From IMG/VR virus record IMGVR_UViG_2934734009_000001, positions 16,834 to 80,833 of that record: a DNA stretch of 64,000 nt, one strand, 5' to 3'. The stretch comes from a virus (taxonomy: Duplodnaviria > Caudoviricetes). How positions within the stretch are numbered: the stretch's first letter is position 1; the number at the start of each line of letters is the position of its first letter. The notes beneath the pieces were generated by a model. That model was not told the DNA's origin and ran no database searches. It was given only the letters and a program-made list of their open reading frames with translations. This document shows positions 23,520 to 41,100 of the stretch, one piece after another. Made by a program: the position numbers and the translations under genes.

Positions 23520-23521
23520 GG

Positions 23522-26451: not shown

Positions 26452-26655
26452 TCAGTGGCGCCGACGGCCACTCTCGAAGCCTGTCGGCATGGCGCGTACT
26501 GATTCTGACGGCTCGTCCGGCGGGATCTCGTTGACGCGACCGTAGACCCTGTACTGGCGCTGCCGTTCGGCTTCCTGCTCATTGGCGAGCTGAGCTTTCG
26601 CGATGCGCTCGCGCACCCACCAGCCCTTTGGCTTCTTCGGCTTCTTCTTCGCCAC
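26452..26655 (-). CDS. Small basic hypothetical protein
   Basis: GGAGG RBS then GTG AKKKPKKPKGWW...FESGRRRH. Confidence 0.55.
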   Translation of the reverse strand: MAKKKPKKPKGWWVRERIAKAQLANEQEAERQRQYRVYGRVNEIPPDEPSESVRAMPTGFESGRRRH

Positions 26656-26771
26656 GTCGCCCCCTCCCCCGAGTTGGACGTTGAGCGTAATCCTGGCTTC
26701 GGGCTGACGGCCAGGGTTCGTTGTGCCTGTTCGCACACCACCACCCCTGCTTCCCCGGCAGAATGCACGTC

Positions 26772-26954
26772 ATGGCGAGGTTCACGGTCCACGGCCGCAC
26801 CCAGGACGAGTGCCAGCAGGCGCTGGACGACCTGCGCCGGCTGCTGGACGTCGAGGTGACCCTGCCGCCCACAGACCGGCTCGGTGGGTCGTGGATCGCC
26901 CGCGCAACGCGCAAGGCCCCGGACCAGACGGTCCGGGGCTTTGCTGTGCGGTGA
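26772..26954 (+). CDS. Small hypothetical protein
   Basis: MARFTVHGRTQDECQQALD...; CAGAAT 7 nt upstream suggests a leaderless mRNA. Confidence 0.55.
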   Translation: MARFTVHGRTQDECQQALDDLRRLLDVEVTLPPTDRLGGSWIARATRKAPDQTVRGFAVR

Positions 26955-26968
26955 GCTAGCTCCACTGG

Positions 26969-27256
26969 TCAGGCACCATCGCTCTCGGCTTCGGAGCGAG
27001 GCCGGCGAAGCATGACCATCAGGAACGCTGCGGCCAGCAGCGCTGCCCCCGCCCCGGCACCCAGTGCGCCAGCTAGCTCCACGGTGGTCCACAGGTCGCT
27101 CTCCGCGCGTCGGCAAGTCGGTTCGCACTCCCATGACATGGCCCCGTCGCTCTGCGAACTGGCAATGCCAGCCAGGCCGGCCGCGAGGAGCAGAATGCCG
27201 GACCAGGCCATCGTGCGTGCGGCGAGCAGGTACCGGCGCGAGTGAGTGTCGACCAT
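26969..27256 (-). CDS. Small two-TM membrane protein
   Basis: Two hydrophobic segments flanking a C-x3-C loop. Confidence 0.5.
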   Translation of the reverse strand: MVDTHSRRYLLAARTMAWSGILLLAAGLAGIASSQSDGAMSWECEPTCRRAESDLWTTVELAGALGAGAGAALLAAAFLMVMLRRPRSEAESDGA

Positions 27257-27327: not shown

Positions 27328-27816
27328 TCAGTCGCGCGGGTGCTGGTTCCGGTTGTTGGCAATGACGCCGCGGGTGGTGCTGATGACGGTGCGCTCGTCG
27401 TGGTGGACGGTGCCGTGGAAGTGGTTGGTGACCGGCTGCGCGGCCTGGTTGGCATCCTTGACCTTCGCGACCAGCCGGGCCACGGCCAGGGCGACCGCGG
27501 CAGGCGAGCCGAGGACGATGCCGAGGGTCAGCGGGTCGACCTGCCCGACGATCCACACTGCGACCCCGATCGGTAGCGACACAACACTGACGGCCTTGAG
27601 GACCCCGCTGACGTCGATCGCCCACTGCGACATCGGCGGCGGCCCCGGCTGCGCCACAGGCAGTGCCGAACCGACCGCGGGGAGCGGGGTGTCGTCGCGG
27701 TACGAGGTGGACTGGCCGGCGAGCAGGGCCTCGTCGACGGCGGCGAGGAAGCGGGCGGCGTTCTGCTGGATGGTGGGGTCGGGCTGCCCGGCGACGGGCT
27801 GCTCGGGCAGCTGCAT
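27328..27816 (-). CDS. Two-TM membrane protein, putative Spd (spread)-like
   Basis: Pro-rich N-terminus and two TM helices; last gene of the traB operon; Spd role inferred from context. Confidence 0.6.
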   Translation of the reverse strand: MQLPEQPVAGQPDPTIQQNAARFLAAVDEALLAGQSTSYRDDTPLPAVGSALPVAQPGPPPMSQWAIDVSGVLKAVSVVSLPIGVAVWIVGQVDPLTLGIVLGSPAAVALAVARLVAKVKDANQAAQPVTNHFHGTVHHDERTVISTTRGVIANNRNQHPRD

Positions 27817-27826
27817 GACGGTCTCC

Positions 27827-28027
27827 TCAGTGGTTGCGGTTGCGGCGGCGGGTGGTGCGGAACCCGAACGGGCCGGGGAGGTCCATGGACGTGGTGCGCT
27901 GGCCGGTCGAGCTGATGGTGTGCCGGGGGCCGCGGCCGGCTCCGAGGGTGATGGACCAGGACAGCCGGTTGATGTTGAGCCGGACCCCGGGGAAGATCCA
28001 AAAGCTCTTGCGGAACGTGATCGGCAT
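27827..28027 (-). CDS. DUF4236-like small basic protein
   Basis: MPITFRKSFWIFPGVRLNINRLSWSITLG...SMDLPG; AGGAG RBS. Confidence 0.75.
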   Translation of the reverse strand: MPITFRKSFWIFPGVRLNINRLSWSITLGAGRGPRHTISSTGQRTTSMDLPGPFGFRTTRRRNRNH

Positions 28028-28057
28028 GCGGGCTCCTAGCTGGTTGAGGTGGCGCCG

Positions 28058-28243
28058 GACCCTGCCTGGACCGTGTCCGGCAGTTGCGTTTCCGCAGGTG
28101 GCGACCCTGCCCGGACCCTGTCTGGGCGGATTGGATGCCGTTCCAGGCCGGGGCGACCCTGCCCGTGCGGGGCAGGGTCCGGGCAGGGTGTCCGGTGAGC
28201 TGACCTGCGGTGATGCGGGGCCGGGCAGGGTCGGGGCAGGGTG
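28058..28243. repeat. clt-like repeat cluster (putative TraB recognition sites)
   Basis: Nine copies of consensus (G/C)ACCCTGCCC: forward at 28058, 28069, 28103, 28114, 28155; reverse at 28170, 28181, 28223, 28234. Four pairs are exactly 11 bp apart. Non-coding and directly downstream of traB. Confidence 0.75.
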
Positions 28244-28253
28244 CAAAAGTGAT

Positions 28254-30467
28254 CTATAGGGCGGCGTGGAGGGCGGCGAGCTTGAATCCACGCCCCTCCC
28301 CGCCGTCCGCCGTCGACACCTTCACGGCCTTCAACTCGACCTCGTCGGCCTCCAGGTCGGCAGACAGAAGCTTCCCGGCCCGCGACCCGTACTGGGCGTC
28401 GCTCTCCGCGTCGCCCCGCTCGTATCGCTCGTCGACCGTGGCCATGTACGCGAAGACCTCTCCGCGGGTCGCTTCGCCGCGGCCGGTGGCGGTGACGGCC
28501 TTGACGATGTGGTCGAGGATCGTCGGCTCCGCCTCGGCCTGGACCGCGGTGCCCTTTCCGGTGGGCCCGCCGGCGACCATGCTGATGCCGGTGTCGGCCC
28601 TGAGCTGGTCCTCGATCGGGTCCGGGCAGTGCTGGGGCAGGCGGCCTATGGCCTGGCGGAGCGCCATGCCCGCCTTGGCGGCCTTGCGGAGGTCCCCGTT
28701 CTCGACGTCGACAAACAGGGAGCGGGCTTCGATGAATCCGGTGTCGGGAGTGGTGAGCCAGCCGCGACCCCGGGTCGACTTGCTGTTCTTGATGTCGCTG
28801 GCGTCGTACCCGTCGCCCGCAACACCGTCACCGAGGATGGTGTTGGACGCTGTTGCGGACTCGACGCGCATCGACCACCGGCCAGCACAGTTGCCGCGGA
28901 GCCGGGACGGAATGACGTCGACCTTGGGGTGCTGGGTGGCGAGGACGAGGATGATCCCGACCGCGGCGCCGACAGCCGCGATCTGGGCGAGGAGCTCGAC
29001 GCTTTCTTCGGCGTACTGGCCGTTGAGACCGCCCTTGACGGTGTACGTGGCGAGCTCGTCGACGATGACGAGTTCGATGCCGCCGAGCTCCTCCAGGAGC
29101 TCCTCGGTGGCCTTGGAGACACCGAGGTCGACGAGGATCTCGGTGCGTCGTTCCAGTTCGGCGACGAGGACCTTGAGGAAGTCGCGGAGCCGTTCGGGGT
29201 TGCGGCGGACGAACGTGTCGAGGGCGGGGGCGATGCCGACGTACTCGCCGGTGCCCTTGCCGTCGAAGAGGCGGACACGGATGCGGGGGTCGAGCATGGC
29301 GCCGACGAGGAGGTTCGCGACGGCCATGCCCTTCCCGGAGCGGGTGGTGCCACCGACGAGCAGCGAGTAGTCGGAGATGGTGGCGAGGATGATGCTGCCG
29401 CGCTTGTCGAAACCGAGCGGGAGGCCATCACGCCAGGCGTTGACCTTGTCTGTGGTGCCGATGAGGGGGTTGGGGACGGCCCTGCCGAACGGGTCGGTCA
29501 TGGACACCCACAGGCTCAGGTGGTCTTCGCGGCCTTCGTGGCGGATGTCCATCTGGTGCTTCGGGATACCGAGCGCGGAGGCCAGGGATCCGGTCTTCTT
29601 CTGTACGTCGGCGACTTCGACGCCGCCGGTGACCTCCAGGTGAGCAAGCCAGGCTCGCCCGTCCTGGATAACTGGGGAACGGAACACAACGGCCTGGTCG
29701 GCCTTGATGATCCCGGCGTCACGGAACGCCCGGTCGATCATGTCGTCGGTCATCCGGTCGCCGTTGCCGATCTTCGCGTCCCGGTCGGTGTACACCTCTC
29801 CGCCCATGGTGCGCCGGCCGATCAGGGCGAGCGCGAGGAGAGCGGATCCGGTGGCGATGACACCGCCGGTGCCGCCAATGAGGTAGATGCCAGCCCCTTC
29901 CGGTACAGCGATGGCTGCGGCGGCGAGCGCACTGCGGGCTCCGCGCCGGACCCGGGCGTCCTTGCGGGCGGACTTGTACTTGGTCATGGCGGTAACGGAG
30001 CCGGCGAACGCTTTCTCCATGACGACGCGCCGCTTGTTCTTTTCAGGTCCGGGGATGAGCCGCTTGTCGTGCCCCCACTTCGCGGTTTTGTAGTCGGCCT
30101 GGGCCTGCTGGACTTCGCGGCGGGCGGTGGCGACCTGGACGCCTTCGGTGCCCTGGATCCAGAGGAACGTGCGCCGCATGCCCCGGAACAGCTGGGCGCC
30201 GTGTCCGTGTTCGCCACCCTGTCGGCGGACCCACCGGCGGAACGCCCGGGTGGAGTTGACCTTGCCGACCGCAGCACGGGTGCGCCACCCGGCGGAGGTG
30301 CGTACCCACTCCGGGGTGAGGGGGGTGTCGCCGAGAAGGTCGGGCCGGTTGACGGGGGTGTCGGCGGTCTTCTGGAGGAGCGGGCTGTCGGCCTTGTCGG
30401 CGAAGCCGGCGATGAGCTTGTCCCACTCCGGGTCTGGGGTGCTGGCGGGGGTGGTCTCGATGCTCAC
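28254..30467 (-). CDS. traB: FtsK/SpoIIIE-family conjugative DNA translocase (TraB/TraSA-like)
   Basis: GTG start overlaps the upstream TGA. N-terminal TM pair, Walker A GGTTRSGKG, LFDGKG, Walker B LVIVDELATY, LVLATQHP, GRGWL and a short wHTH-like C-terminus. Confidence 0.88.
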   Translation of the reverse strand: MSIETTPASTPDPEWDKLIAGFADKADSPLLQKTADTPVNRPDLLGDTPLTPEWVRTSAGWRTRAAVGKVNSTRAFRRWVRRQGGEHGHGAQLFRGMRRTFLWIQGTEGVQVATARREVQQAQADYKTAKWGHDKRLIPGPEKNKRRVVMEKAFAGSVTAMTKYKSARKDARVRRGARSALAAAAIAVPEGAGIYLIGGTGGVIATGSALLALALIGRRTMGGEVYTDRDAKIGNGDRMTDDMIDRAFRDAGIIKADQAVVFRSPVIQDGRAWLAHLEVTGGVEVADVQKKTGSLASALGIPKHQMDIRHEGREDHLSLWVSMTDPFGRAVPNPLIGTTDKVNAWRDGLPLGFDKRGSIILATISDYSLLVGGTTRSGKGMAVANLLVGAMLDPRIRVRLFDGKGTGEYVGIAPALDTFVRRNPERLRDFLKVLVAELERRTEILVDLGVSKATEELLEELGGIELVIVDELATYTVKGGLNGQYAEESVELLAQIAAVGAAVGIILVLATQHPKVDVIPSRLRGNCAGRWSMRVESATASNTILGDGVAGDGYDASDIKNSKSTRGRGWLTTPDTGFIEARSLFVDVENGDLRKAAKAGMALRQAIGRLPQHCPDPIEDQLRADTGISMVAGGPTGKGTAVQAEAEPTILDHIVKAVTATGRGEATRGEVFAYMATVDERYERGDAESDAQYGSRAGKLLSADLEADEVELKAVKVSTADGGEGRGFKLAALHAAL

Positions 30468-31813
30468 TTCTGCTCCTCGGTGGCGTCGGGCTGTACGGCG
30501 TCGCGGACTCGGCGGGCGTAGACCTTGCTGCGGCCGAGGAGCTTGGCGACGGCGGGGGTGGAGAACTGCTCGGCGGGTACGGCGTCGCGAAGCTTCTTCG
30601 CTGCTTCGATGTCCTCGCTCCGGAGGGGCTCTACGGCGTCGGTTCGGGGAGCGCGGCCAGAGGGTTGGTTGCCAATCCCCCCAAGGGCTCCAGACTTCTT
30701 CGGGTCGACCGGGCGACGGGCCCGTGACCCTCCCCCTGCACCACCCTTCGGCCCGCCTTCTGCGGGCTTCTGAGACGGTCCGCTGTCGCCGCCGTCGGGG
30801 CGGAAGATCTCGGCGAGGAGCCGGTCGACCGCTTCGCTCTCGGGGGTGCGGTCGACGTTCGACAGGACCGCGTTGATCGCGGCGCGCGCTTCCTCGCGGC
30901 CGGCGAGCGTGTCCGCTGTCGTGGCGAGCGGAAGTAGGTGCTCGTTGTCCCACGCCTGCTGCCACGCAGCCTCGCGGCTGATCGCCCCGGTGGGGTGCGC
31001 GACGATGATCCGCTCGTACTCCGTGAACTCTCGCGGGAAGAGCTTCTTCCGCCGCTTGTCCTCAGTCGCGTGGACCTTCGCGAGCGCCCGCTGCTCCCGT
31101 GCCTGCTTCTTCGCCGCGGCTTTCGCGGCGGCGCGCTGCTCCAGGCTTCGGGTGTCGGCGGCGGCCCGACCTTCGAGGAAGTCCCGGACCTCTGCGAGGA
31201 CCGGTCCGATCACCGAGGTGGCGGCCAGGGCGACACCGGCAACGATCCCGTACTCGTCCATGCCGTGCGCCAGGTTGATGTACCCGGCGACCGAGGCCAG
31301 CGAGGCGGTCAGGACCCAGAACGGCCACCGGGGCAGCCCCTTGCGGTGCGCCCACCGGGTGCCGAGGACACCGACCCAGGCGAGGAGCTCCAGGAAGAAC
31401 GGAATGGGTCCGAGAAGCCACGCGGTGCTGGGGTTCTTCTCACCCTCCTTGTGAAGGGTGAGGAAGTACGACAACTGAGCGGGGAGTGCGGCGAGGAGGC
31501 CAAGGACGACGGCGACGTTGACGATGAGCTTGAACGCGGTGCCGTTGTCGGCACTGGCCTCGCGGCGACGGGCCTTGAGCTCCGCCTTCTCGTCCTTGGC
31601 GGCTTCGGTGACGGCGTCGAGCTTCTTCTTGAGCCCGGCCTGCTTGACCTGCTCGGCGAGGAGGTCGGTGGCGGTCTTGGCAGCCCCGGCCTCGGCGGCC
31701 TGGGAGCCGGCAGTACGGGCGGCTTCGGCTTCGGCGGAGATGCGTGCCGCCTCAGCGCGGGTCTTCTCGGCGGCGGCCTCACGCTCCTCCCAGGAACGGT
31801 AGTCGGCACTCAT
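30464..31813 (-). CDS. SpdB/DUF2637-like membrane protein with C-terminal HTH
   Basis: Coiled coil, four TM segments, C-terminal FSTPAVAKLLGRSKVYARRVRD; translationally coupled to traB. Confidence 0.7.
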   Translation of the reverse strand: MSADYRSWEEREAAAEKTRAEAARISAEAEAARTAGSQAAEAGAAKTATDLLAEQVKQAGLKKKLDAVTEAAKDEKAELKARRREASADNGTAFKLIVNVAVVLGLLAALPAQLSYFLTLHKEGEKNPSTAWLLGPIPFFLELLAWVGVLGTRWAHRKGLPRWPFWVLTASLASVAGYINLAHGMDEYGIVAGVALAATSVIGPVLAEVRDFLEGRAAADTRSLEQRAAAKAAAKKQAREQRALAKVHATEDKRRKKLFPREFTEYERIIVAHPTGAISREAAWQQAWDNEHLLPLATTADTLAGREEARAAINAVLSNVDRTPESEAVDRLLAEIFRPDGGDSGPSQKPAEGGPKGGAGGGSRARRPVDPKKSGALGGIGNQPSGRAPRTDAVEPLRSEDIEAAKKLRDAVPAEQFSTPAVAKLLGRSKVYARRVRDAVQPDATEEQK

Positions 31814-31858
31814 GACGGTGTGTCCTTCCGGGACGGGTGGGGGTGACGGGCAGGCGGG

Positions 31859-32185
31859 TCAGGCGGGCTTGGGGATGGCGCGGCAGGTCTCGGCGTGGGA
31901 CTGCGCCCACTTCTTGGCGCCAGGGAGGAAGCTCTCGTCGGTGGAGTCGAAGTTGAGTTGCGGGCCCTTCCCGAACTCGTCGTGATAGGCGTCGAACCCC
32001 CAGTCCTCGGTGCGGGTGTCACCGCATCCGTGACAGGCGATGAAGTGCTCGGTCGGAAAAGCGATGCCGTAGTAGCCGGGGCGCTCGGCGATGTCGACGG
32101 CGATGTCGTCGCGGCCGAGGGGCGATCCGGCGACGGTGAGGTAGCGGGCGATGACGTTCTCGGGCCAGACGGTCTGCGCAGTCAT
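31859..32185 (-). CDS. Zinc-binding hypothetical protein
   Basis: WPENVIARYLT...CHGCG...WAQSHAETCRA; GAAAGGA RBS. Confidence 0.7.
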   Translation of the reverse strand: MTAQTVWPENVIARYLTVAGSPLGRDDIAVDIAERPGYYGIAFPTEHFIACHGCGDTRTEDWGFDAYHDEFGKGPQLNFDSTDESFLPGAKKWAQSHAETCRAIPKPA

Positions 32186-32203
32186 GGCGGGTGTCCTTTC
32201 GGG

Positions 32204-32398
32204 TCAGATGCGGGCGGTGGCGGGGTTCTTGCCGCGCAGGTGGGTGAGGGTGGCGACACCGAGCCCGAAGCCCAGCAACACGGGCTGGGCGGCTACGAAC
32301 TGCACGGTCGCGGCCAGCACATTGGCAACGGCCTGGGCGAGGCTGGGGAACAGGATCAGCAGCACCAGGGCTGCGGCGATCAACATCAGCTTCTTCAC
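32204..32398 (-). CDS. Small two-TM membrane protein
   Basis: VKKLMLIAAALVLLILFP...PVLLGFGLGV; GGAGG RBS. Confidence 0.65.
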   Translation of the reverse strand: MKKLMLIAAALVLLILFPSLAQAVANVLAATVQFVAAQPVLLGFGLGVATLTHLRGKNPATARI

Positions 32399-32440
32399 GG
32401 GGTGCGCCCCTCCGGGCTCGGGTTTGGGTGGTACGGGATA

Positions 32441-32488
32441 GCCCCGGGCGGGAGTTGATCCCGCGCCCTCGCGGCTGAAAGCCGGGGC
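32441..32488 (-). ncRNA. tRNA-like element 1 (acceptor stem plus T-arm, no anticodon arm)
   Basis: Minus strand GCCCCGG-17nt-GCGGG-ATCAACT-CCCGC-CCGGGGC. Confidence 0.55.
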
Positions 32489-32496
32489 TGTGATCA

Positions 32497-32682
32497 CTAC
32501 TTGTGCGGGCAGCGACCCTTGCAGGTGCACGGGACGTCGATCTGGTTGCGGATCGGGGCGAGAACGGCGTTGGCGACGGCGTCTCCGGCGCGCCCCCCTG
32601 CCTTCCCAGCAGCCTTGGTGCCCGCCCGGTGCAGAGCACCAGCGGCGGAGTCGAGCTTCTCGGCAGCCTTGCGTCCGAACAT
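32497..32682 (-). CDS. MFGR-start microprotein
   Basis: 61 aa, AAGGAG RBS, C-terminal CTCKGRC. Confidence 0.7.
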   Translation of the reverse strand: MFGRKAAEKLDSAAGALHRAGTKAAGKAGGRAGDAVANAVLAPIRNQIDVPCTCKGRCPHK

Positions 32683-32721
32683 TGGGTTCTCCTTCGGTAT
32701 GACCGACCTGGTGGTCGGAGC

Positions 32722-32768
32722 GCCCCGGGCCGGAGTCGATCCGGCAGCCTCACGCCGTAATCCGGGGC
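32722..32768 (-). ncRNA. tRNA-like element 2
   Basis: Minus strand GCCCCGG-16nt-GCCGG-ATCGACT-CCGGC-CCGGGGC; compensatory T-stem change relative to element 1. Confidence 0.55.
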
Positions 32769-32774
32769 GGCGGG

Positions 32775-33023
32775 TCAGCGGTTCAGCCAGCCGGCGCGCC
32801 GGCCGTCGCCGTCCGCAGCGACGACCTTCTCGACGTAGGCCACGACCTCTTCGCCGCGGGCATTGCAGCCCTTTGCCGTCAGCGCAGCCGCCAGGGTGCC
32901 GGTCCGGAACGTGGCCGCAGCCTCCTGGTCACCGCCCTTGACGGCCTTGCGAATGTCCTTGGTGAGTCCGGCGTGGCCGCTGACCTCAGTCGCGGTGTCG
33001 GTGATCCGGCTAAACAGGCCCAT
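32775..33023 (-). CDS. MGLFSR-start small protein
   Basis: 82 aa, GAAAGGA RBS. Confidence 0.7.
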   Translation of the reverse strand: MGLFSRITDTATEVSGHAGLTKDIRKAVKGGDQEAAATFRTGTLAAALTAKGCNARGEEVVAYVEKVVAADGDGRRAGWLNR

Positions 33024-33116
33024 GACGGTCCTTTCGGGTCAGTGCCCGGCGGATGCGGCCGGGCTTCGCGGTGATCAGATACGAGTGCACGACAGCCCCT
33101 TCTCGGAGCCGATGGG

Positions 33117-33500
33117 TCAGCGGCAGCGTCGGCAGCCAGCGCCGTGGGCGATGCGGCACAGCTCGGCCGGGGTGAAGCCGCCCAGGGTGCCGGTGTGGGT
33201 GACCTCGGTTTCCATCACGCGCCCGCGTCCGCTGCCGTCGGGGACGTCGATCTCCCACCCGGTGGTGGCGTACTTGCCACGACCGACCTTCTTGATCTGT
33301 CCGACGGTCCTGACCCGGGCGCGCTTTGCTGCCTTGGCCTCCCGGCGTTCCTGCGCACGGGCCATCGCGGTCTGCTTGGCCTCCTGGTAGACGGCCTCCG
33401 GGATGGCTGCCGCAGGGGTGGCTGCCGCAGCCTGCTGGGCGGCGCGATAGCGCTCCTCCGGGGTGCTGACACGGTCGATCTTTCGGCTGAACAGGCCCAT
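33117..33500 (-). CDS. MGLFSR-start small protein
   Basis: 127 aa, GAGAGGA RBS, C-terminal C-x3-H-x3-CRRC. Confidence 0.7.
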   Translation of the reverse strand: MGLFSRKIDRVSTPEERYRAAQQAAAATPAAAIPEAVYQEAKQTAMARAQERREAKAAKRARVRTVGQIKKVGRGKYATTGWEIDVPDGSGRGRVMETEVTHTGTLGGFTPAELCRIAHGAGCRRCR

Positions 33501-33529
33501 GGCGGTCCTCTCGGGTCGGGGGGCTTCGG

Positions 33530-33760
33530 CTACCGGCTGGTCTCTGCGGCGACCGCGGCTTCCCGCACCTCGGCGATCGCCGCGGCAATCCGACCGGTGT
33601 CCCCGCCTGCCGCCTCGTTGAGCTGCCGGGCGGCGGCGGTCTGCCGGTTGATGTCGTCGTCCGACATGCGACCCGGGTTCGTGAGGGCACCGCTGTGGGC
33701 GACCTCGGACAGCAGGTTGGCGGCGGCCTGACGCTCGGCGGGGGTGCTACGTCCGAACAC
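33530..33760 (-). CDS. MFGR-start small protein
   Basis: 76 aa, AAGGAG RBS. Confidence 0.7.
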   Translation of the reverse strand: MFGRSTPAERQAAANLLSEVAHSGALTNPGRMSDDDINRQTAAARQLNEAAGGDTGRIAAAIAEVREAAVAAETSR

Positions 33761-33775
33761 GGAGTTCTCCTTGGG

Positions 33776-34258
33776 TTAGTTGGCGATCAGGTTGAGTGCG
33801 GCGGTGACGGTGCCGGGGAGGGTGGTGCAGACAGGCACGTTGTGGCGGCGGGCCACGTAGGCCAAGTACCGGTTCCGCTCCGGGTTGGGGCAGTCGTCCG
33901 GAATCCCGAGGACCGCCCGGCCGCTGGTGACGTCCAACCCGAACTCGACGTTGGTCGTCATGCCCGGCATCGTCTTCAGGTCCCGGGGGATCCAGAAGAG
34001 AATCGCGGTGGCAGCGGCGCGGGCGTCGGTCTCCCAGTCGACCTGCGTCTCGTACCGGTCGGCCCGCACGCCGTTCCGGGACTCGGGGCTCAGCACAGTC
34101 AGGGTTTCCGGGCCGGCCCACTGGTCGGCCAGGATCTTGAGGGCGGTGGGCCGCCACGACGGAACCGGGTTGCTCTTGTCCGGAGTCGGCCCCGCCAAGA
34201 ACACAGACGGGCCGACGGGGAGGGGCTCGCGGGCCATGACCAGCTTGACGATGCTCAT
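33776..34258 (-). CDS. Nucleoside 2-deoxyribosyltransferase-like domain protein
   Basis: SVFLAGP...SWR...SPE...QVDWE...ILFWIPR...TTNVEFG motif series. Confidence 0.8.
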   Translation of the reverse strand: MSIVKLVMAREPLPVGPSVFLAGPTPDKSNPVPSWRPTALKILADQWAGPETLTVLSPESRNGVRADRYETQVDWETDARAAATAILFWIPRDLKTMPGMTTNVEFGLDVTSGRAVLGIPDDCPNPERNRYLAYVARRHNVPVCTTLPGTVTAALNLIAN

Positions 34259-34629
34259 GCCCCCGCCTCCTTCGCCGCGGCACGGGCCTCGTGCTGCGGA
34301 GTCCACGGCAAGGGCAGGTCGTCGCCGTCCCGCCGGGGGACGATGTGGACGTGGAGGTGGAAGACGCTCTGCGTCGCCTCGGTGCCCTTGCTGGTGATGA
34401 GGTTCGCGGCGGGCAGCTCGGCCATCAGCTCGGCTGCCCGCCCCATCACCGCCTTGGTGACCTCGATGTCGGTTCCCGCGTCCTCGACGTGAACCCGCGG
34501 CAGGACGAAGACGTGGCCGTCGGTGCAGCCACCGCTACGGGGACGGATCGCAATCGCGTCGTCCCACTCACGCACGATGGTGGCGGGCACCTGGCCGGCG
34601 ACGATGCGGCAGAAAACGCAGTCCGACAT
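34255..34629 (-). CDS. HIT family nucleotide hydrolase
   Basis: CVFCRIVAG...GHVFVLPRVHV...QSVFHLHVHIVPR histidine triad. Confidence 0.92.
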   Translation of the reverse strand: MSDCVFCRIVAGQVPATIVREWDDAIAIRPRSGGCTDGHVFVLPRVHVEDAGTDIEVTKAVMGRAAELMAELPAANLITSKGTEATQSVFHLHVHIVPRRDGDDLPLPWTPQHEARAAAKEAGA

Positions 34630-34669
34630 GAGCTACTCCTTGAATCAGATCGGATGAACTGAGGCGGGG

Positions 34670-34882
34670 TCAGGCGTGGTTGGGCTTCCAGGTGCCGTTG
34701 TTCAGCCGGTTCAGCTCGTCGAGGTTCTCGTCGGCGGCCTGCCGCATCGACTCGGCGAGGCGGTGCTGGCCGTTCGCGGCGGCGTCACGCTGCGCCTGCC
34801 GGCTGTTCTGGATGTCGGCGGTAATGTCGGCGCGGGTCTGCTCGGCGGACTGGCTCTTGAAAAAGTGACGGGCGCTGGCCAT
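34670..34882 (-). CDS. Small helical hypothetical protein
   Basis: MASARHFFKS...; AAGGAG RBS. Confidence 0.65.
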   Translation of the reverse strand: MASARHFFKSQSAEQTRADITADIQNSRQAQRDAAANGQHRLAESMRQAADENLDELNRLNNGTWKPNHA

Positions 34883-34977
34883 GGGTTTCTCCTTGGGTTG
34901 GCGTCGGGTCCGGGTGACTCCCGGGCCACTCCGCCGCCACCAGCTGCGGGCCTGGGGGCGACAGGGCAAGCCGGGGG

Positions 34978-35280
34978 TCAGGCGGCAGCCGGGGTGTTCA
35001 GCCCGTCCAGCTCGTCGAGTTCGTCCAGCAGCCGGGGCCCGAACGGCTGCCCGGCGTCGTGCTCGACGGCCAGGCCCCGCAGCCAGTGCCGGGTGCTGTG
35101 GTCACCCCGGGCCGCGACGTACCGGGTGACGATCTCCCCCGGCGACAGGCCCTCCGCCTCCTCCCACGTCACCTGCACGTCGGAGGTCAGGAGCGCCGCC
35201 CGCAGGTTGTGGATCTCGGCGGACACGGTGGCGAGGTCGCCGGAAAACAGGTCAGTGACGGTCGAGACGTAAGGAGACAT
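34978..35280 (-). CDS. Hypothetical protein
   Basis: 100 aa, GAAGG RBS. Confidence 0.6.
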   Translation of the reverse strand: MSPYVSTVTDLFSGDLATVSAEIHNLRAALLTSDVQVTWEEAEGLSPGEIVTRYVAARGDHSTRHWLRGLAVEHDAGQPFGPRLLDELDELDGLNTPAAA

Positions 35281-35387
35281 GGGGGTGCCCTTCGGTTGAG
35301 TGATGGGTGAAGAGAGAGGTGGGGGTGGAGAGCCGCGCCCGGCCGGCCGGGGGATGTCGCCAGCGGGGCGCGGCGGACTGTGGGGTG

Positions 35388-35522
35388 CTACCGGCGGCGG
35401 GCTTCCTGCCGGGCCATCGCGGCCCGAACATCAGCACCAGCCTCGTAGTCGCGCTTGCACGCGTCCGGGGTGGCGGGCTCAGAGACGATCGTGTTCTCGC
35501 GCGGCCGCTCGGCCGTCGCCAT
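35388..35522 (-). CDS. Microprotein
   Basis: ATG overlaps the upstream TGA; PDACKRDYEAGADVR. Confidence 0.5.
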   Translation of the reverse strand: MATAERPRENTIVSEPATPDACKRDYEAGADVRAAMARQEARRR

Positions 35523-35695
35523 CAGAGACGCCGCTGGGCGATCAGCCGGCGACGAGCAGCCGGATCGGCGGGGAGAGTGACCGACTCGCGGCACGGGGTC
35601 ACCGGGCGGCGGACGTAGGAGCCAGCCTCGTGGGCGGCGATGTCGGCCGGGGTCATGGTCGCCGGGGTGGCGAGGGTAGAGTTCTTGGCAGCCAT
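35522..35695 (-). CDS. Microprotein, first gene of transfer operon
   Basis: GAGAGGA RBS; MAAKNSTLATP. Confidence 0.55.
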   Translation of the reverse strand: MAAKNSTLATPATMTPADIAAHEAGSYVRRPVTPCRESVTLPADPAARRRLIAQRRL

Positions 35696-35737
35696 CAGGG
35701 GTCCTCTCAAAGATCCTGGTGGTAGGCCCTGGCCAGC

Positions 35738-35812
35738 GGTGGAGTCGCTGAGCTGGGGCCGTTTGCTTTTGGTGCCGGTGGAGTCGGCGGTGGAGCCTTC
35801 TGGGGTGGAGTC
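35738..35812 (-). repeat. Four GGTGGAG(T/C)C repeats in hairpin loops of the operon leader
   Basis: Plus-strand copies at 35738, 35777, 35789, 35804, each flanked by short complementary arms. Confidence 0.6.
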
Positions 35813-35869
35813 CCGTTCGGCTTCAAGGGATATCTTGTAGCTAGTCGACCCCTCCCGTCAAGAGGTCTA

Positions 35870-35898
35870 TTGAAGTCGTGTCGCATCGGCCTTACGAT
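35870..35898 (+). promoter_or_regulatory. Sigma70/HrdB-type promoter for a leaderless gene
   Basis: TTGAAG-17-TACGAT, with ATG 6 nt downstream at 35905; a divergent TTGACG lies on the minus strand at about 35856-35861. Confidence 0.7.
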
Positions 35899-35904
35899 TC
35901 GGAC

Positions 35905-36150
35905 ATGACAGACGCCCTCAACACCGCCATCGACGAAGCCGTAAACTCCCTGGCCACCATCGACGACCCCGTTGAGCGCTACCACGCCAGCCGCCGCATC
36001 CGCGTCCAGCTCGACACCGGAAGCAGCGCCCTCAAGGAAGCCCAAGCCCGTATCGCCGCCGAGCTCAAGGCCGGCAGATCGTGGCGCGAAGTCGGCATCC
36101 TGATGGGTGTCAGCGGGTCCCGCGCCGAGCAAATCTCCAACGGGAAGTGA
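35905..36150 (+). CDS. Small HTH regulator (candidate Kor-like repressor of transfer operon)
   Basis: RSWREVGILMGVSGSRAEQI HTH; divergent from the transfer operon. Confidence 0.75.
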   Translation: MTDALNTAIDEAVNSLATIDDPVERYHASRRIRVQLDTGSSALKEAQARIAAELKAGRSWREVGILMGVSGSRAEQISNGK

Positions 36151-36302
36151 CCGGGTGTCTGTCATGCCCCCAAGTCAACTCGCGGCCGACTTACCGAGCG
36201 ATGAGCTTCCAGTGCGGTGGCAGTGCACCGGATCGGCCCCTAGTGCAGTAGCAGTGCAGCAGTGATGCAGAACCGCAGCGCCACGACCCGGGGAGCCGGA
36301 TA

Positions 36303-36941
36303 GTGAACGTCACCACGTGGACCGGCCGCACCGCCTGCGCCTTGCAGGCCGCGCTCCGCATGACGAACGAGGGCTTCGCCGCGAAGCTCGGTGTCGCGGT
36401 TCGCACGGTTGCCGGCTGGCACCGGAACCCGGAGATTGTGCCGCGCACCGAAATACAGCAGGCCCTCGACACCACCTACGAGAGGGCCAACGAGCACGTG
36501 CGACGACGCTTCACTCTTCTGTCCCGCCCGCCCGAGGAGCCCGCCCAGGCTGAGGCGCAGGCGCTGCGCGTGGCTATCGCCGTGGTTCTGCGCGGCGCCG
36601 AGGTGCTGCTGGTGTGCCGCCGCGGCGACGACACGCTCACCTGGCAGTTCCCGGCCGGGATGTGCAAGCCGGGCGCCGCCGTGGCGTCGGTGGCGGTGCA
36701 GGAAACCCACGCGGAGACCGGCGTGCACGTCGCGGTCCGCGAGGAGCTCGGCACCCGCGTCCACCCGAAAACCGGGGTGCTGGCCAGCTACGTCCTCTGC
36801 GACTATCTCGCCGGCGAGGCGAGGAACTTGGATACCGTCGAGAACATGGACGTCGCCTGGGTGCCCCTCGCCAGCCTGACCCGTTTCATTCCGGCCGAGA
36901 ACATCTACCCGCCGATCCTGAGTGCCTTGGAGGCAGCGTGA
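36303..36941 (+). CDS. XRE-HTH plus degenerate Nudix domain protein
   Basis: [25 protein letters not shown]; WQFPAG...[12 protein letters not shown] degenerate Nudix box. Confidence 0.82.
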
Positions 36942-37345
36942 CCGAGCAGAGTGTTCAGCCCCCCGTCTCCACGGCGATCATCGTGGACGGTGGAAAGGTG
37001 CTGATGATCCGACGCCAGGTGCGGGAGGGGAAGCTGCTGTGGGCGTTCCCCGGCGGCGGCATCGAAGCCGGGGAGACCCCGGAGCGGGCTGCGGTGCGGG
37101 AGACCGCGGAGGAGGTCGGCCTGGAGGTGAAGGCCGCCCGTGTCCTCGGCGACCGGGTGCATCCGCAGACCGGGGTTCCGATGACATATGTGGCCTGTGA
37201 GCTGATCTCCGGTGACGCGATCGTCGGGGACGCCGAGGAGATCGCAGCTGTCGCGTGGATCCGGCACGAGGAGATCGCAGAGTACGTGCCGTGGGGGCTG
37301 TTTGGACCCGTACAGGACTACCTGGATGACGCGCTCCCCCGCTGA
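36938..37345 (+). CDS. Nudix hydrolase (MutT/Pif-like)
   Basis: GTG overlaps the upstream TGA; intact Nudix box [26 protein letters not shown]. Confidence 0.9.
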
Positions 37346-37360
37346 CCGCGAACACGAGAG

Positions 37361-37389
37361 AGGCCCCCGCCGTTGACGGTGGGGGCCTT
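37361..37389. terminator. Hairpin between convergent genes
   Basis: AGGCCCCCGCC...GGTGGGGGCCT. Confidence 0.6.
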
Positions 37390-37404
37390 GTGCGTGCGAG
37401 GCGA

Positions 37405-37815
37405 CTAGACGTGACCGCGGCGCCTCAACTCTTCAACTGCCTTGCGTGCGACCTCACGGATCTCGGCGGCGGTCATGTTGTCGACGGTCGCGACCATGGC
37501 GTTCGTGATGGCCTGGTCGAGCTCGCCATCGGGGATCTTGGCAAGTCCGCCCGCTGACCGTGCGCCCTTCATCTCGATGGGGCCGGCGGCGCCATCGAGG
37601 ACGCCCAAGCAGGACCCCGAAGCCCATTCCAGAGCTGCATCGATCTTGGCGTAGGAAGTCTCTCGCACCTGCGCCCCCTCTTCCACGCGGCGCCAGGTGT
37701 CTTTCGACATGCCCGCGCCGGCGGCGGCAGCAGCAACGCCGACTCGAAGTTCCAGGCGACGCTCGCGCACCTTGGCGGCAAGCCGCTGATGATTATGCAG
37801 CTCGTGGGTGGTCAT
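37405..37815 (-). CDS. XRE-family HTH regulator
   Basis: LAAKVRERRLEL...GMSKDTWRRVEEG...IDAALEW; CATAGT 6 nt before ATG (leaderless). Confidence 0.8.
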   Translation of the reverse strand: MTTHELHNHQRLAAKVRERRLELRVGVAAAAAGAGMSKDTWRRVEEGAQVRETSYAKIDAALEWASGSCLGVLDGAAGPIEMKGARSAGGLAKIPDGELDQAITNAMVATVDNMTAAEIREVARKAVEELRRRGHV

Positions 37816-38033
37816 AGGCCCACTATGCCAACAGCGGCGATAAGGCGCTACCTCCACCCCAGAAGTTAGCCGAATTGCTAGCTAGTTAGCCGGACATCGA
37901 CTACCGTTGGAGTTGCCGGCCGCAGCACGCCGAGCGGCCTAATTCACACCAGCGGGCAGAGCTCGCGCATCCACGGGAGTGCCGTGTTCGTGCCGTTCAT
38001 CTCCACGCCAACCCGACCAAAGGAGGGCGCACC

Positions 38034-39203
38034 ATGGGTGTCCGTCTGATTGTCGAGGTGCTGGATCACTGGCAGGGTGCCGGGTTGACCGCGGGCGAAC
38101 GGAGCGACCTTCTACTGCTCGCGGAGAACGCGAACGACCAGAGCCGACTGACGTGGGGCCCGGTGCACGAGGAGTACATGCTGCACCGGGCGAACAAGTC
38201 GGCGGCGGGGTGGAAGAACTCGATCGGCAAGCTGCTGAAGAAGGGTGTGCTGGTTCAGCACGCGCAGGGGCATGTCGGCCAGGTCGCGGTGTACCGGCTT
38301 GCACAGTTGTGCTCGGAGGCTCCGCACGACGGTTGGAGAGGGCACTGCACCCGGCCAGAAAGGGTCACCCCAGAGGTGACCCTTTCTGGGGGCGGCCCAG
38401 GGAAGGGTCACCTCTCAGATGACCCTGAGGGTCACTCCTCAGGTGACCCTCTTGAGCGAAAGGGTCACCTGACAGGTGGGGAAAGGGTCATCTCTCAGGT
38501 GACCCCTACTCCTCCTGTCTCCTCTTTTAAGACCCCCTCTAACACCTCCTCCTCCCCCGCGGCGGAGTCGTCGCCTGCGGCCCGTCAGTCGGACACCGAG
38601 GGAGGAGGCGGTGGCGATTCCTTCTTCGAAGGGCCAACAGCGGTTGGGGCTTCCGCGGGGCAAGGGGTAGTGGTGGCTCCCCCTTCGGTCGAGCTTCACC
38701 CGCAGGCCGAGCCCCTGGTCGCCGCCCTGGACTTCCGGGGCCGTCCGCCGGGGTCGAAGCAGCACCGACAACTGGTCGCCTTTGCTGCCGCCGCCCTTAA
38801 CGCCGGCTGGGTCGAGCAGGACCTGAAGACGTACCTCGACCTCGGGGGTGCGGCGGTAAACAGCGCTGCGGCCGTGTACGCGCACCGTCTGGCCGCGGAT
38901 GAGCTCCCGGACCCGGTGACGTTCCGGGAGGCTGCGAGACGCCCCCTGGAGGGCACGGACGCCATCGTGGACGGGTGGATGCAGCTCGCCGGGCGTTCGG
39001 GCCCGCACAGGCCGTATCAGGACTCGTGGCGGCGCCTGGAGGAGGAGGGCCGGAACGGGGCACGGCCGCAGGGGTGGGAGAAGGTGCCGCACTGCGGGGA
39101 CCCGGACTGCGATGAGGTCACCCGCCGACGGGACGAGACCAGTTGGGACGGATTGCCGACAGCCTCACCGTGTCAGCGCTGCCACCCGGCCATGAGGTTC
39201 TGA
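38034..39203 (+). CDS. Putative replication initiator (second Rep-like gene)
   Basis: AGGAGG RBS; N-terminal wHTH-like region (LTAGERSDLLLLAENAND), internal iteron block, C-terminal CGDPDC...CQRCHP. Confidence 0.65.
   Translation: MGVRLIVEVLDHWQGAGLTAGERSDLLLLAENANDQSRLTWGPVHEEYMLHRANKSAAGWKNSIGKLLKKGVLVQHAQGHVGQVAVYRLAQLCSEAPHDGWRGHCTRPERVTPEVTLSGGGPGKGHLSDDPEGHSSGDPLERKGHLTGGERVISQVTPTPPVSSFKTPSNTSSSPAAESSPAARQSDTEGGGGGDSFFEGPTAVGASAGQGVVVAPPSVELHPQAEPLVAALDFRGRPPGSKQHRQLVAFAAAALNAGWVEQDLKTYLDLGGAAVNSAAAVYAHRLAADELPDPVTFREAARRPLEGTDAIVDGWMQLAGRSGPHRPYQDSWRRLEEEGRNGARPQGWEKVPHCGDPDCDEVTRRRDETSWDGLPTASPCQRCHPAMRF
38355..38506. repeat. Palindromic iterons AGGGTCA-N9-TGACCCT (putative origin)
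   Basis: Units at 38361, 38404, 38428, 38461 (degenerate) and 38484; the first extends to a perfect 15-bp inverted repeat (38355-38389). Confidence 0.8.
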
Positions 39204-39285
39204 GGACGAAGGAGCCCGAAGTCGAGACGGGCAAGCCAGCCTCAGGACAACATCGACATCAGAGCTGCCCTACGGAGAGGACCGC

Positions 39286-40134
39286 ATGACCAGACAACTC
39301 ACCACCCAGAACGCGACGATCACCACCGCCGCGGTCGAGGTGAAGACCCTCACCATCAGCGGCAAGCAGGTCACTCTCGCCGTCTTCCGGCAACTTCAAG
39401 AGGAACCCTTGATCGCATGGGACGGCACCCTCAAGGGCGAACCGTGGGGCACCGTCAACTACCACCCTGACAAGTGCTCGGACAGTCCGTTCGCGCACAG
39501 CCACGTGGTGTGGCAGCGAGGCGTCGAACTCCATCGCGCTCGCGTCGACAAGATCCCTAGCTTCGAAACCGGGGGGCGATATCTGCTCAGAGTAGGGGGA
39601 TACGAGAGGCGAGACTCAACTGCCTCGTTCAAGGCTGCGGAGACCGATCGCTTTCTGACCGGAAGCGTCCTGGAATGGCTCGCCGGCCGGGCAGACAAGT
39701 GCCCACTCGAAGCTCGTGCCGGATGGACAGCTCAGTACGACGACCGGGCCATCCTTGACTCCGGTCACGGGTTCTCCGCATTCGCGAAAGCCTCCAAAGC
39801 TGCGGTAGAAGCCGCCAACGCGCGCACCAAGGCGGATGAAGCCCTAGCGGCTGTGGCCAAGAAGGAGGAAGAGGAGCGAGCCAACCCCCAACAATCCGCC
39901 CGGTGGGAGTGGCAGAGCCTTGACCAGCTCCAAGCCGAGGCGGGCGCCGCCAACGCAGAAGCATCGGCCGCGCTGAACGTTCTCGTCGCCGAAGTAGCCG
40001 CATGGGGCCTCGACCTCTCAGATGTTCGGGCAGCGCACGATCAACTCATCGAGGCCGAAGCGGCCCGCCGAGAGCGACACCGGGCTGCTCGCAGGTCCCT
40101 GGCAGAGCTCCCTCAACTGTTCATCGCCGTCTGA
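39286..40134 (+). CDS. Hypothetical protein
   Basis: GGAGAGG RBS; EVKTLTISGKQVTLAVFRQL...PWGTVNYH; followed by a hairpin at about 40145-40173. Confidence 0.75.
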   Translation: MTRQLTTQNATITTAAVEVKTLTISGKQVTLAVFRQLQEEPLIAWDGTLKGEPWGTVNYHPDKCSDSPFAHSHVVWQRGVELHRARVDKIPSFETGGRYLLRVGGYERRDSTASFKAAETDRFLTGSVLEWLAGRADKCPLEARAGWTAQYDDRAILDSGHGFSAFAKASKAAVEAANARTKADEALAAVAKKEEEERANPQQSARWEWQSLDQLQAEAGAANAEASAALNVLVAEVAAWGLDLSDVRAAHDQLIEAEAARRERHRAARRSLAELPQLFIAV

Positions 40135-40212
40135 CCCGCGCCATGGCCGCCCCCGCGGGATTCGGGGGCGGCCTTCTTCAGCTAACCACGGGGTCCAGCA
40201 CCAGCCAGGTGC

Positions 40213-41100
40213 TCACAGAGTTTGTTGCCCGGGTACGGAGGCGACGACAACAGACTGTGGCGGGGGCGGTGGTTGGGGTCCGGCGACCATGGCCTGCACA
40301 AGGGCGGAGAGGATTTCCCCGCGCTGCTCCTGGGTGAGGTCTCCGTCGGCGACGAGGCGTTCCGCGGCGAGGTAGCGGGAGAGTTCGAGGGGCTGGTCGA
40401 AGTAGGACCGGAGGTGTGTGGCGGCGGCTTCCTGGGAGCGGATGAACGTCTTGGCGACGTATCCGGCGAGAGCCGCTGACACGGCGCCAAGTCCGCCGGC
40501 AACGATCGCGACGGCGGTGGTGCTGGCCCAGAGGGCGATCCCGGCGAAGAGCACCAGGAGGAGGAATCCGGTGCCCATGGCCACCTGGGCGTTCCGGAAC
40601 GAGGTCTTGGCCTGGCCGGTGGCGATCTGGTGATAGAGGTCGAGGCGGGCATGAGTGGCCTCCCAGAGTTCGGGGAGCCCGAGGGTGCCTCGCCGTCCAG
40701 TATCAGCAGCTGGGGGGTGATCTTCGTCCACGGCCAGGTCGGGAAATAGCGTGGCATCACGGCTGTGCATGAGGCTGCCGCCGATGATGATGTCTGCCGC
40801 GGTGTACTCGCGGCGAATCGCATCCGCGAGCGCGCTTTCCGCGCGTGTCAGGCGTTGTCGGCTCTCACCGACGGCAGCGGCCTGCCTGGCGGCGAACGAC
40901 CTGACCTGTGCGAAGACGACTACGGAGGCAGCCACGAAGGGAACTACCAGAAAGGCGGGCTCGATGGCATCGCGCCAGACGTACAGGGTGAGGAAGTACG
41001 TCGCTGCGAGCGCCAAGGCGGACGCGACGTATAGGACTGTGCGCGTGAGGCGGATTCGCGGCGCGCGCTCGGCGTCGTCGGGGAGATCACTGGGCGGCAT
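40213..41100 (-). CDS. Membrane protein with TRADD-N-associated 2TM-like domain
   Basis: YHQIATGQAKTSFRNAQVAM-TM-TM-TFIRSQEAA...LRSYF pattern; family call from motif recollection. Confidence 0.65.
   Translation of the reverse strand: MPPSDLPDDAERAPRIRLTRTVLYVASALALAATYFLTLYVWRDAIEPAFLVVPFVAASVVVFAQVRSFAARQAAAVGESRQRLTRAESALADAIRREYTAADIIIGGSLMHSRDATLFPDLAVDEDHPPAADTGRRGTLGLPELWEATHARLDLYHQIATGQAKTSFRNAQVAMGTGFLLLVLFAGIALWASTTAVAIVAGGLGAVSAALAGYVAKTFIRSQEAAATHLRSYFDQPLELSRYLAAERLVADGDLTQEQRGEILSALVQAMVAGPQPPPPPQSVVVASVPGQQTL

Follow-up and report, generated by a model that had tools for sequence, protein, structure and literature searches.

A plasmid-type TraB–SpdB2 module with clt-like repeats lies inside Streptomyces prophages and may allow spread without virions

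The window analysed here, a stretch of 64,000 bases, corresponds to bases 16834–80833 of the 80,833-base IMG/VR provirus record IMGVR_UViG_2934734009_000001, which is rated 100% complete by CheckV. Its left third is a siphophage virion module (2–21849) and its right third a leftward early operon (context 43052–64000). Between the two lies another leftward operon, running from ∼35695 to 27328, which encodes a TraB-type DNA translocase and its SpdB2-type partner and is the subject of this study. Genes were called by codon usage, and families were assigned with Pfam, PHROGs and NCBIfam. A transfer-type operon had been proposed at this place in a previous reading made from the letters alone (hereafter the sequence-only reading), and the gene calls and family searches returned the layout that it described. 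The central gene, traB (28254–30467, minus strand), encodes an FtsK-like double-stranded DNA (dsDNA) translocase of 737 aa that matches PF01580 (E = 5e-10, above the cut-off) and phrog_1358 (E = 4e-83) and has Walker A (GGTTRSGKG) and Walker B (LVIVDE) motifs and one hydrophobic segment at residues ∼196–214. The preceding gene (30464–31813, minus strand) encodes a 449-aa protein with a coiled-coil N-terminus and about four transmembrane (TM) segments, of which three are clear hydrophobic segments and the fourth is weaker; its stop overlaps the start of traB, as was anticipated for a multi-TM protein coupled to an FtsK-family ATPase. A cluster of repeats directly follows the traB stop. Beyond it come a DUF4236 small protein (27827–28027, minus strand; PF14020, E = 2.9e-15) and the last gene of the module, a conserved 162-aa membrane protein (27328–27816, minus strand; phrog_19266, E = 3.7e-57) with two hydrophobic segments, a Pro-rich PPVxQPGxPPMS motif and a His-rich tail. 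Both the DUF4236-like gene and the 2-TM gene had been recognized from the letters.

Several lines of evidence indicate that the ATPase belongs to the TraB family. Over residues 30–624, it aligns with the characterised TraB of plasmid pSVH1 (32% identity over 614 aa, E = 3e-61), and this alignment takes in the N-terminal region outside the ATPase, which FtsK lacks. The protein also matches 57 plasmid records, 51 of them from Streptomyces, including pSG5 and pZL1. The phylogeny suggested along with the sequence-only reading was run as a maximum-likelihood tree of 33 sequences (23 prophage TraB, 5 plasmid TraB, 2 FtsK, 1 EccC and 2 other FtsK-domain proteins from Streptomyces genomes) after the removal of three distant sequences. 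All 28 TraB fell into one clade apart from FtsK, EccC and the two other FtsK-domain proteins (support 0.975), in agreement with a TraB-type ATPase and not with FtsK or EccC. Within this clade, 13 prophage TraB, including that of the window, were sister to pZL1-type plasmid TraB (0.993), and 10 grouped with pSVH1 and pSG5 (0.993). The predicted core fold matches the FtsK motor domain (E = 1.7e-14), and the model of the last 98 aa reaches a pLDDT of 90 and shows an H-S-H-H-S-S topology. The dN/dS ratio of traB is 0.14–0.19 against its three closest relatives, at a dS of 0.31–0.37, which indicates that the gene is under purifying selection along its whole length. Its full-length homology to the pSVH1 protein, its position in the tree and the clt-like repeats beside its gene identify the ATPase as a TraB, and by analogy it would act as a hexameric pump.

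The relationship of the 449-aa protein to SpdB2 emerges at the level of profiles. Pairwise BLAST to pSVH1 SpdB2 was marginal (E = 0.014); aligned with hhalign, 16 prophage proteins matched pSVH1 SpdB2 plus three plasmid DUF2637 proteins with a probability of 99.95% (E = 4.5e-38, 355 columns). The Pfam DUF2637 model was not reached by the window's protein, and two of the 16 relatives reached it with an E-value of 3.4e-4 at best. The dN/dS of spdB2 is 0.11–0.28 against its two closest relatives, more distant pairs being saturated and uninformative. The expectation that the ATPase has a Spd-type partner is thus borne out by profile-level homology, which identifies this partner as an SpdB2 homologue whose gene is translationally coupled to traB. 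Upstream in the operon, a 64-aa 2-TM protein (32204–32398, minus strand) is Spd-like and conserved in relatives; among the 18 genome loci presented below, 6 have a homologue of it immediately preceding the spdB2 homologue.

The module occurs in related phages at the same place. The virion genes of two IMG/VR proviruses, G001 and G005, show synteny with those of the window (∼78–86% nucleotide identity), and in the matching position these proviruses carry TraB (90% and 89%, respectively) and SpdB2 (94% and 85%). The DUF4236 gene is present in G001 and absent at the matching position in G005. In a third provirus, G003, the virion module is unrelated (portal of the SPP1 type, capsid of the HK97 type) and a DnaB helicase is encoded; here the SpdB2–TraB–2-TM set (TraB 68–73%) is found between the early and the virion genes, all on one strand. 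A scan by TraB alignment, with one genome per species, gave 18 loci, all in Streptomyces, and all 18 have an SpdB2-like gene, TraB and a gene of ∼150 aa in this order. The sequence-only reading had suggested a survey of the co-occurrence of terL and traB in Streptomyces prophages; in 16 of the 18 loci, a terL gene is present no more than 10 kb downstream, as established by BLAST in six, by PHROGs in nine (nine of nine tested, plus one portal) and by 73% identity to a PHROG-confirmed neighbour in one. In the remaining two, either the sequence ends first (L042) or the terL set starts ∼18 kb downstream (L027, in genome G008). The latter locus has terL, portal, capsid and tape measure genes of the G003 type, early genes of the window type and, 35 kb upstream, an integrase.

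At least four types of terL accompany the module (PHROG families 2, 38 and 9, the last in a long and a short form), which suggests that it moves about in the gene pool of temperate phages; its place is always immediately ahead of the packaging genes. Moreover, the spdB2 gene of G008 is of another type than that of the window, which places a recombination joint at the spdB2/traB border. The idea of a one-off hybrid between a phage and an actinomycete integrative and conjugative element (AICE) therefore did not hold, the module being recurrent in many Streptomyces prophages with these different terL types. Its position in the syntenic relatives and its presence in other backbones indicate that the module is a built-in part of the phage and not a nested AICE. 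We also noted that contig C7 of G008 contains, at ∼182.7–268 kb (L071–L074 and L027), a complete-looking prophage of ∼85 kb in which a virion module of the G003 type is found together with early genes and a TraB (93%) of the window type.

The repeats that follow traB form a clt-like locus (28059–28242) based on the 8-bp word (G/C)ACCCTGCC. Seven of the window's 12 exact ACCCTGCC copies are found within these 184 bp; 3.9 ± 2.1 copies are expected in the whole window, and 12 were reached in none of 100 shuffles. Along traB, the first four exact copies are direct and the next three inverted, with degenerate copies in addition. In pSVH1, five of the seven GACCCGGA copies are located at 8158–8256, after the traB stop at 8142. 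The repeat cluster noticed beside the ATPase gene is therefore a set of seven copies placed directly after the traB stop in a pSVH1-like layout. In G001, G005 and L027, the repeat positions are conserved and the spacers differ. A 7-mer repeated at least four times within 230 nt after traB was present in 20 of 23 prophage loci, and in 19 of the 23 the observed count was reached by at most 25 of 500 mononucleotide shuffles.

Across these 23 loci, the repeat word differs among six classes of TraB C-terminus and agrees within each. The wing DG(G/R)E(G/S)RG(F/Y) is associated with ACCCTGCC (7/7 loci) and the wing DGxR(S/A)MGYRL with CCTGGAC (5/6 loci). In the other classes, QRGxxRxRGWRL is found with GGTGCGC or GGTGCA (4 loci), and DGKRVWGW, WGGGRGYYL and VSVYPLTAVRR with CACAGGG, CGTGAT and CCCGTCC, respectively (2 loci each). 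The ATPase of L035 is only 43% identical to that of the window, yet it has a window-type C-terminus and the window's word. We propose that the repeats are the putative cognate clt of TraB. In addition, a short element, CAGGTCAG, is present between the direct repeats (window ∼28195–28215), with a partly complementary CCTGC among the inverted ones; it recurs across different repeat words (seen in G000, G001, G005, G003, G002, L027 and L031).

The order of the genes closely resembles that of Streptomyces conjugative plasmids. In pSVH1 and pSG5, as in the window, small spd genes, spdB2, traB, clt repeats and a downstream open reading frame (ORF) follow one another, TraB being 31–32% identical, SpdB2 homologous at the profile level and the 8-bp repeats placed right after traB, direct and then inverted. 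However, these plasmid systems belong to a 12-kb plasmid whereas that of the window lies inside an 80-kb tailed prophage; the window's word is ACCCTGCC instead of GACCCGGA, it has no GntR-type TraR, and the ORF that follows clt is unrelated. pZL1, the NBC_01241 plasmid and a Kitasatospora plasmid share an arrangement of small ORFs, DUF2637/SpdB2, a small ORF, TraB and a downstream ORF. A divergent GntR gene heads the operon in two of these three, a GNAT acetyltransferase is found at the head in the NBC_01241 plasmid, and pZL1 and the NBC_01241 plasmid have a NUDIX gene further on. The AICEs pSAM2 and pMEA300, as described in PMC2440964, resemble the window in their integrase-based maintenance, FtsK-like Tra protein, Nudix gene and GntR or XRE regulators; unlike it, they measure 9–24 kb and contain no virion genes, whereas in the window 32 kb separate traB from the integrase, which stands at the end of a phage that looks complete.

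A second group of relatives unites virion and plasmid genes. The portal of the window is 64–67% identical to genes on four Streptomyces plasmids of 88–93 kb. One of them, NZ_CP046906.1, is a circular plasmid of 91 kb that encodes ParA/ParB, an integrase and a type III polyketide synthase. The virion genes of this plasmid and of the window are in collinear order, including the divergent layout (36–78% protein identity), and all of them align along their length, terL over residues 8–405 of 417. The slot of the window's TraB operon is occupied in NZ_CP046906.1 by a GntR-headed operon that encodes an annotated ‘conjugal transfer protein’ and a 976-aa protein and converges on the portal gene. The 976-aa protein and a 440-aa protein of this plasmid were considered as TraB and SpdB2 homologues and rejected (hhalign probability 5%, BLAST E = 1.6), and no match in the plasmid was obtained with PF01580 or with a locally built TraB/FtsK hidden Markov model (HMM). 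We liken NZ_CP046906.1 to pZL12 and pSLE1 by the description given in PMC4487206 and not by the pZL12 sequence. The precedent cited in the sequence-only reading, pZL12 as a plasmid-phage with transfer genes, is a real one, and its transfer is reported to need a major tra gene and adjacent genes (PMC3583192). pZL12-type elements are extrachromosomal replicons with ParA/ParB, whereas the window comes from an integrated provirus ending in a tyrosine integrase; BLAST of all proteins of the record against NZ_CP046906.1 gave no ParA/ParB match, partition families not having been searched directly. By this comparison, the phage of the window resembles an integrating relative of the pZL12-like group with a classical TraB system in the same slot.

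Concerning phages, SpdB2 homologues have been reported on the actinophages phiC31 and VWB, with the suggestion that a phage might use a plasmid spreading protein for its own DNA (PMC4447253). These phages are reported with SpdB2 only, whereas the window contains the whole set, including pump and clt. In the literature covered, which included few subscription journals, we found no description of a TraB–clt–SpdB2 set in an integrated tailed prophage. Relative to pZL12, to the AICEs and to what Thoma et al. noted on SpdB2, what the comparison of sequences adds is a canonical TraB with matching clt-like repeats and SpdB2 in integrated tailed prophages of several lineages.

The 162-aa protein has a wider distribution. 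Its homologue directly follows traB in all 15 aligned sequences, and the protein was found at 84 places in 75 of 401 sampled Streptomyces genomes. Among the 81 places examined, the three weakest being left out, phage-type TraB was detected by tblastn at 12. A TraB search over all 401 genomes scored two candidates per genome and is an undercount. A terL was detected at 11 with 11 references, a set so small that its absence at the other places is weak evidence, and both genes were found at four. A locally built HMM recognized an FtsK-like ORF just upstream of the 2-TM gene in 40 of 79 scoreable flanks. In 11 others (L083, L088, L102–L105, L125, L129, L140, L144 and L149), the upstream ORF resembles the 976-aa protein of NZ_CP046906.1; this type of protein gives no FtsK-domain match and could be a highly divergent translocase that stands in for TraB. 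The other 28 flanks include 25 with an unassigned ORF of at least 400 aa in the upstream position. We considered the 2-TM protein as a marker of phage-borne modules and rejected it, as it is not phage-specific and most of its loci are without a recognisable terL.

The head of the operon is variable. A GntR regulator with a UTRA domain is present there in G001, G005, L029 and L036 (4/4 tested), and BLAST homologues of this regulator occupy the same position in L030, L033, L034, L035, L039 and L042. In the window, G002/G004, L027, L028, L040 and L041, the head consists of a small gene and two Nudix genes, and L031 has the Nudix pair only. The Nudix pair is thus an alternative to the GntR regulator at the operon head. 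In the window, this divergent unit (35905–37345, plus strand) comprises an 81-aa gene and two NUDIX genes (36303–36941 and 36938–37345) with matches at E = 1e-12 and 9e-22, as the sequence-only reading had it; the 81-aa protein, which it took for a helix-turn-helix (HTH) protein, matched no HTH profile. Next to the unit lies an XRE-type regulator of 136 aa (37405–37815, minus strand), also foreseen, whose HTH_31 match (E = 2e-5) remains under the Pfam cut-off (25.3 bits versus 27). Homologues of this regulator (37–39% identity) are located beside the integrase in G002 and, in G001 and G005, at the end of the record, where the collinear early genes start. According to PMC2440964, the transfer regions of AICEs and plasmids typically contain Nudix genes and regulators of the GntR or XRE type. 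TraR and KorSA, which regulate plasmids and AICEs, are described as members of the GntR family (PMC4447253, PMC2440964), and the Nudix protein Pif as the conjugal immunity factor of pSAM2 (PMC2440964). The window's Nudix genes are likened to Pif by their Nudix domain and their position at the operon head; the similarity to the NUDIX protein of plasmid pZL1 is confined to the Nudix box (E = 2e-4). In L032, the TraB operon is headed by a divergent fusion of an XRE-type HTH with a peptide deformylase (495 aa; 2998–4485, minus strand), with BLAST homologues in L037 and L044.

The remaining genes of the window are those of a phage and of the region next to the module. According to the family searches, the virion module includes a tail fibre gene (2–1684, leftward), a tape measure gene (4835–10696, minus strand), the major capsid protein gene (14680–15537, minus strand), a leftward scaffold-like gene, a rightward MuF-like gene, terL (18888–20141, plus strand) and the portal gene (20155–21849, plus strand). 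Its genes diverge around 16347–16494, scaffold, capsid and tail genes being leftward and the MuF-like gene, terL and portal rightward; since the circular plasmid NZ_CP046906.1 is arranged alike, this layout is native and not a local inversion. Immediately 5' of terL, and overlapping its start, a 324-aa ORF (17917–18891, plus strand) with Cys-rich repeats and a C-terminal HNH-like motif resembles an HNH endonuclease. In G001 and NZ_CP046906.1, there is no HNH-type gene between a 180-aa gene and terL, and G005 has a gap of similar size. The leftward early operon encodes a replication initiator (48500–49498), an exonuclease (55066–55893) and a beta-clamp-like protein (56237–57247), all from family searches. 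A tyrosine integrase (62696–64000, plus strand), cut by the end of the record, is the sole integrase detected, and a tRNA search found none. The 16.8 kb to the left of the window contain lysis and tail-fibre genes, a ligase and an IS607-like gene pair; in this part (L003, 4275–6193), a small serine recombinase (Resolvase) lies beside a 437-aa protein with a zinc-ribbon match, with the look of an IS607-type insertion far from the TraB block.

Upstream of spdB2, the genes of the transfer operon (31859–35695, minus strand), defined by gene calls and family searches, include a nucleoside 2-deoxyribosyltransferase-like gene (33776–34258, minus strand) and a HIT gene (34255–34629, minus strand). Among G001, G005, G003 and G002, a homologue of the HIT gene was found in G001 only, elsewhere in the record, whereas that of the window is inside the transfer operon. 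Beyond the XRE-type regulator, a conserved protein of 389 aa (38034–39203, plus strand) has 126 homologues, none of which has a Pfam domain; those with names are nearly all from Streptomyces, the 10 best are 84–90% identical over at least 99% of the length, and a gene of L027 is 85% identical. Four to five palindromic 22-nt repeats (AGGGTCACC..GGTGACCC) are found at 38358–38505, inside the coding sequence of this ORF, and could be an origin or an operator array. In phage lambda, the initiator O contains the origin inside its own gene. By analogy, the 389-aa protein is possibly a replication initiator with an internal origin, which we regard as a reasonable guess; language-model features pointing to HTH_36 (0.96) provide a lead only. 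If so, the Rep-like gene of the region would be the 389-aa ORF and not the neighbouring 282-aa ORF (39286–40134, plus strand), to which the sequence-only reading had given this role. The latter identity was rejected, as Pfam, PHROGs and NCBIfam matched no family to the 282-aa ORF and the Atlas gave no usable match; moreover, homologues were not found in G001, G005, G003 or G002. The GC content ranges from 0.64 to 0.73 across the window and dips to 0.66 at 38–42 kb. In this lower-GC stretch, a 295-aa protein (40213–41100, minus strand) has four hydrophobic segments and a weak TRADD-N-associated 2-TM match (E = 8e-5, under the cut-off); its homologue was not found in G001, G005, G003 or G002, and it may be an accessory or defence gene.

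Considering these data together, we find it probable, if far from assured, that the window covers the greater part of a temperate Streptomyces siphophage in its integrated state, and that this phage natively carries a plasmid-type system that moves dsDNA between and within hyphae, making spread without virions possible. The parts are a TraB hexameric pump, its cognate clt, a pore-forming SpdB2, small Spd-like membrane proteins and a regulatory head. From their identity, their conservation and their place inside the phage, which are observed, we infer the way in which they would act on phage DNA, and when. Once the integrase has excised the phage, or while the phage replicates, the predicted winged-helix domain at the C-terminus of TraB would bind the circular DNA at its ACCCTGCC repeats, and TraB would drive this DNA through the membrane into a neighbouring hypha in contact. 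Passage through the septal cross-walls would rely on SpdB2 together with the small membrane proteins, resulting in mycelial spread free of virions, and in the new compartment the DNA would integrate or replicate. Among the sequencing runs listed, one DNA run, perhaps the source, contained the whole stretch and no RNA run did, which speaks neither for nor against this scheme.

Several observations weigh against this interpretation. A tblastn search of the deposited phage records with TraB (E up to 1e-5) and SpdB2 (E up to 1e-3) gave no match among 50,697; PHROGs nonetheless holds both TraB (phrog_1358) and the 2-TM protein (phrog_19266). The full-length model of TraB is mediocre (pLDDT 64), and the solved folds nearest to its 98-aa C-terminal domain, forkhead-type winged helices, are weak matches (best E = 0.017, TM 0.46–0.53, none at or below 0.001). 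TraB scored 25.1 bits with the NCBIfam model plasmid_TraB (NF041214) and did not reach its cut-off of 800, although this model appears to cover a narrow subgroup. The 162-aa protein shows no similarity to the ORFs that follow traB on five plasmids (hhalign probability 1.4%), and the window is without the GntR regulator seen in relatives. Any phage hallmark was present in 10 of the 79 2-TM loci, and most of these loci lack a reference terL, which suggests that the wider module family is not confined to recognisable prophages. Finally, the co-variation between repeat word and TraB C-terminus may partly reflect linkage, because the wHTH-coding end and the repeats lie within ∼300 bp of each other and could be co-inherited by recombination; that the repeat positions are kept while the spacers diverge argues for a use of the repeats beyond linkage.

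The same parts could serve otherwise. A conjugative plasmid or AICE-like element might have kept a phage virion module, its capsid side being secondary or defective and conjugation its main route; this would agree with a virion module common to a circular 91-kb Streptomyces plasmid with ParA/ParB, with the lack of TraB and SpdB2 in deposited phage records and with regulators of plasmid type. We nevertheless hold it to be unlikely, as the virion, lysis and early modules look complete, the virion genes align over their full length with those of the plasmid, the early operon with its exonuclease, replication initiator and beta-clamp-like gene is phage-like and the CheckV rating is that of a complete virus. 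A separate AICE nested in the prophage, or the decaying remnant of one, was rejected and seems very improbable, even if Tra, Nudix and XRE genes are AICE-like and the GC dip at 38–42 kb would suit such an insertion. The sole integrase is 32 kb away at the end of the phage, and no integrase or transposase family was matched among the 22 genes scanned at 27328–41100, the small genes at 21846–27000 being outside the family scan. We found no long exact direct repeat bracketing the block, so the view that no second integrase, transposase or att-like boundary surrounds it stands. Furthermore, the module occupies the same site in G001 and G005 and is also present in prophages with other backbones, its reading frames are intact and its dN/dS is well under 1.

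Two further possibilities accept the module as functional and place its action elsewhere, and to each we give only a slight chance. The pSVH1 TraB is reported to act on clt in cis without nicking (PMC4447253, PMC3583192), and an integrated clt would give a chromosomal entry point; the module could thus work from the integrated prophage, by Hfr-like mobilisation of host DNA or by exchange between lysogens, instead of moving the phage. Against this, clt is kept inside the phage beside traB in 23 of 23 loci, and the phage's own integrase allows a circular substrate. Alternatively, the module could have a use in the phage that involves no intercellular transfer, such as the exclusion of conjugative elements or phages, permeabilisation at lysis or the handling of DNA during infection. 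In PHROGs, the family is classed as ‘moron, auxiliary metabolic gene and host takeover’, and SpdB2 is described as forming pores (PMC4447253). However, a full pump, a recognition domain and matching repeats are kept together, which DNA translocation would need and these other uses would not, and traB is under purifying selection along its whole length.

If the phage does carry a native dsDNA transfer system, it would have two routes of spread, by particles and by the transfer of DNA between hyphae, and the line between prophages and conjugative elements would be blurred in the main antibiotic-producing genus. We put forward only tentatively, as somewhat less probable than its contrary, the broader proposition that many temperate phages of Streptomyces have a second, virion-free route of transmission, with a TraB pump and a private clt word in at least six specificity classes. 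The matched classes of TraB C-terminus and repeat word form a natural set in which the code by which TraB recognises DNA could be studied. Transfer of this kind would matter for the measurement of phage host range, for judging resistance to adsorption and for estimates of gene flow in soil, and also for the way in which AICE-finding pipelines keyed on Int, Tra and Rep classify prophages. It would bypass resistance at the level of the receptor and allow the phage to spread inside the mycelium before, or instead of, lysis, as a bacterial counterpart of the movement proteins of plant viruses.

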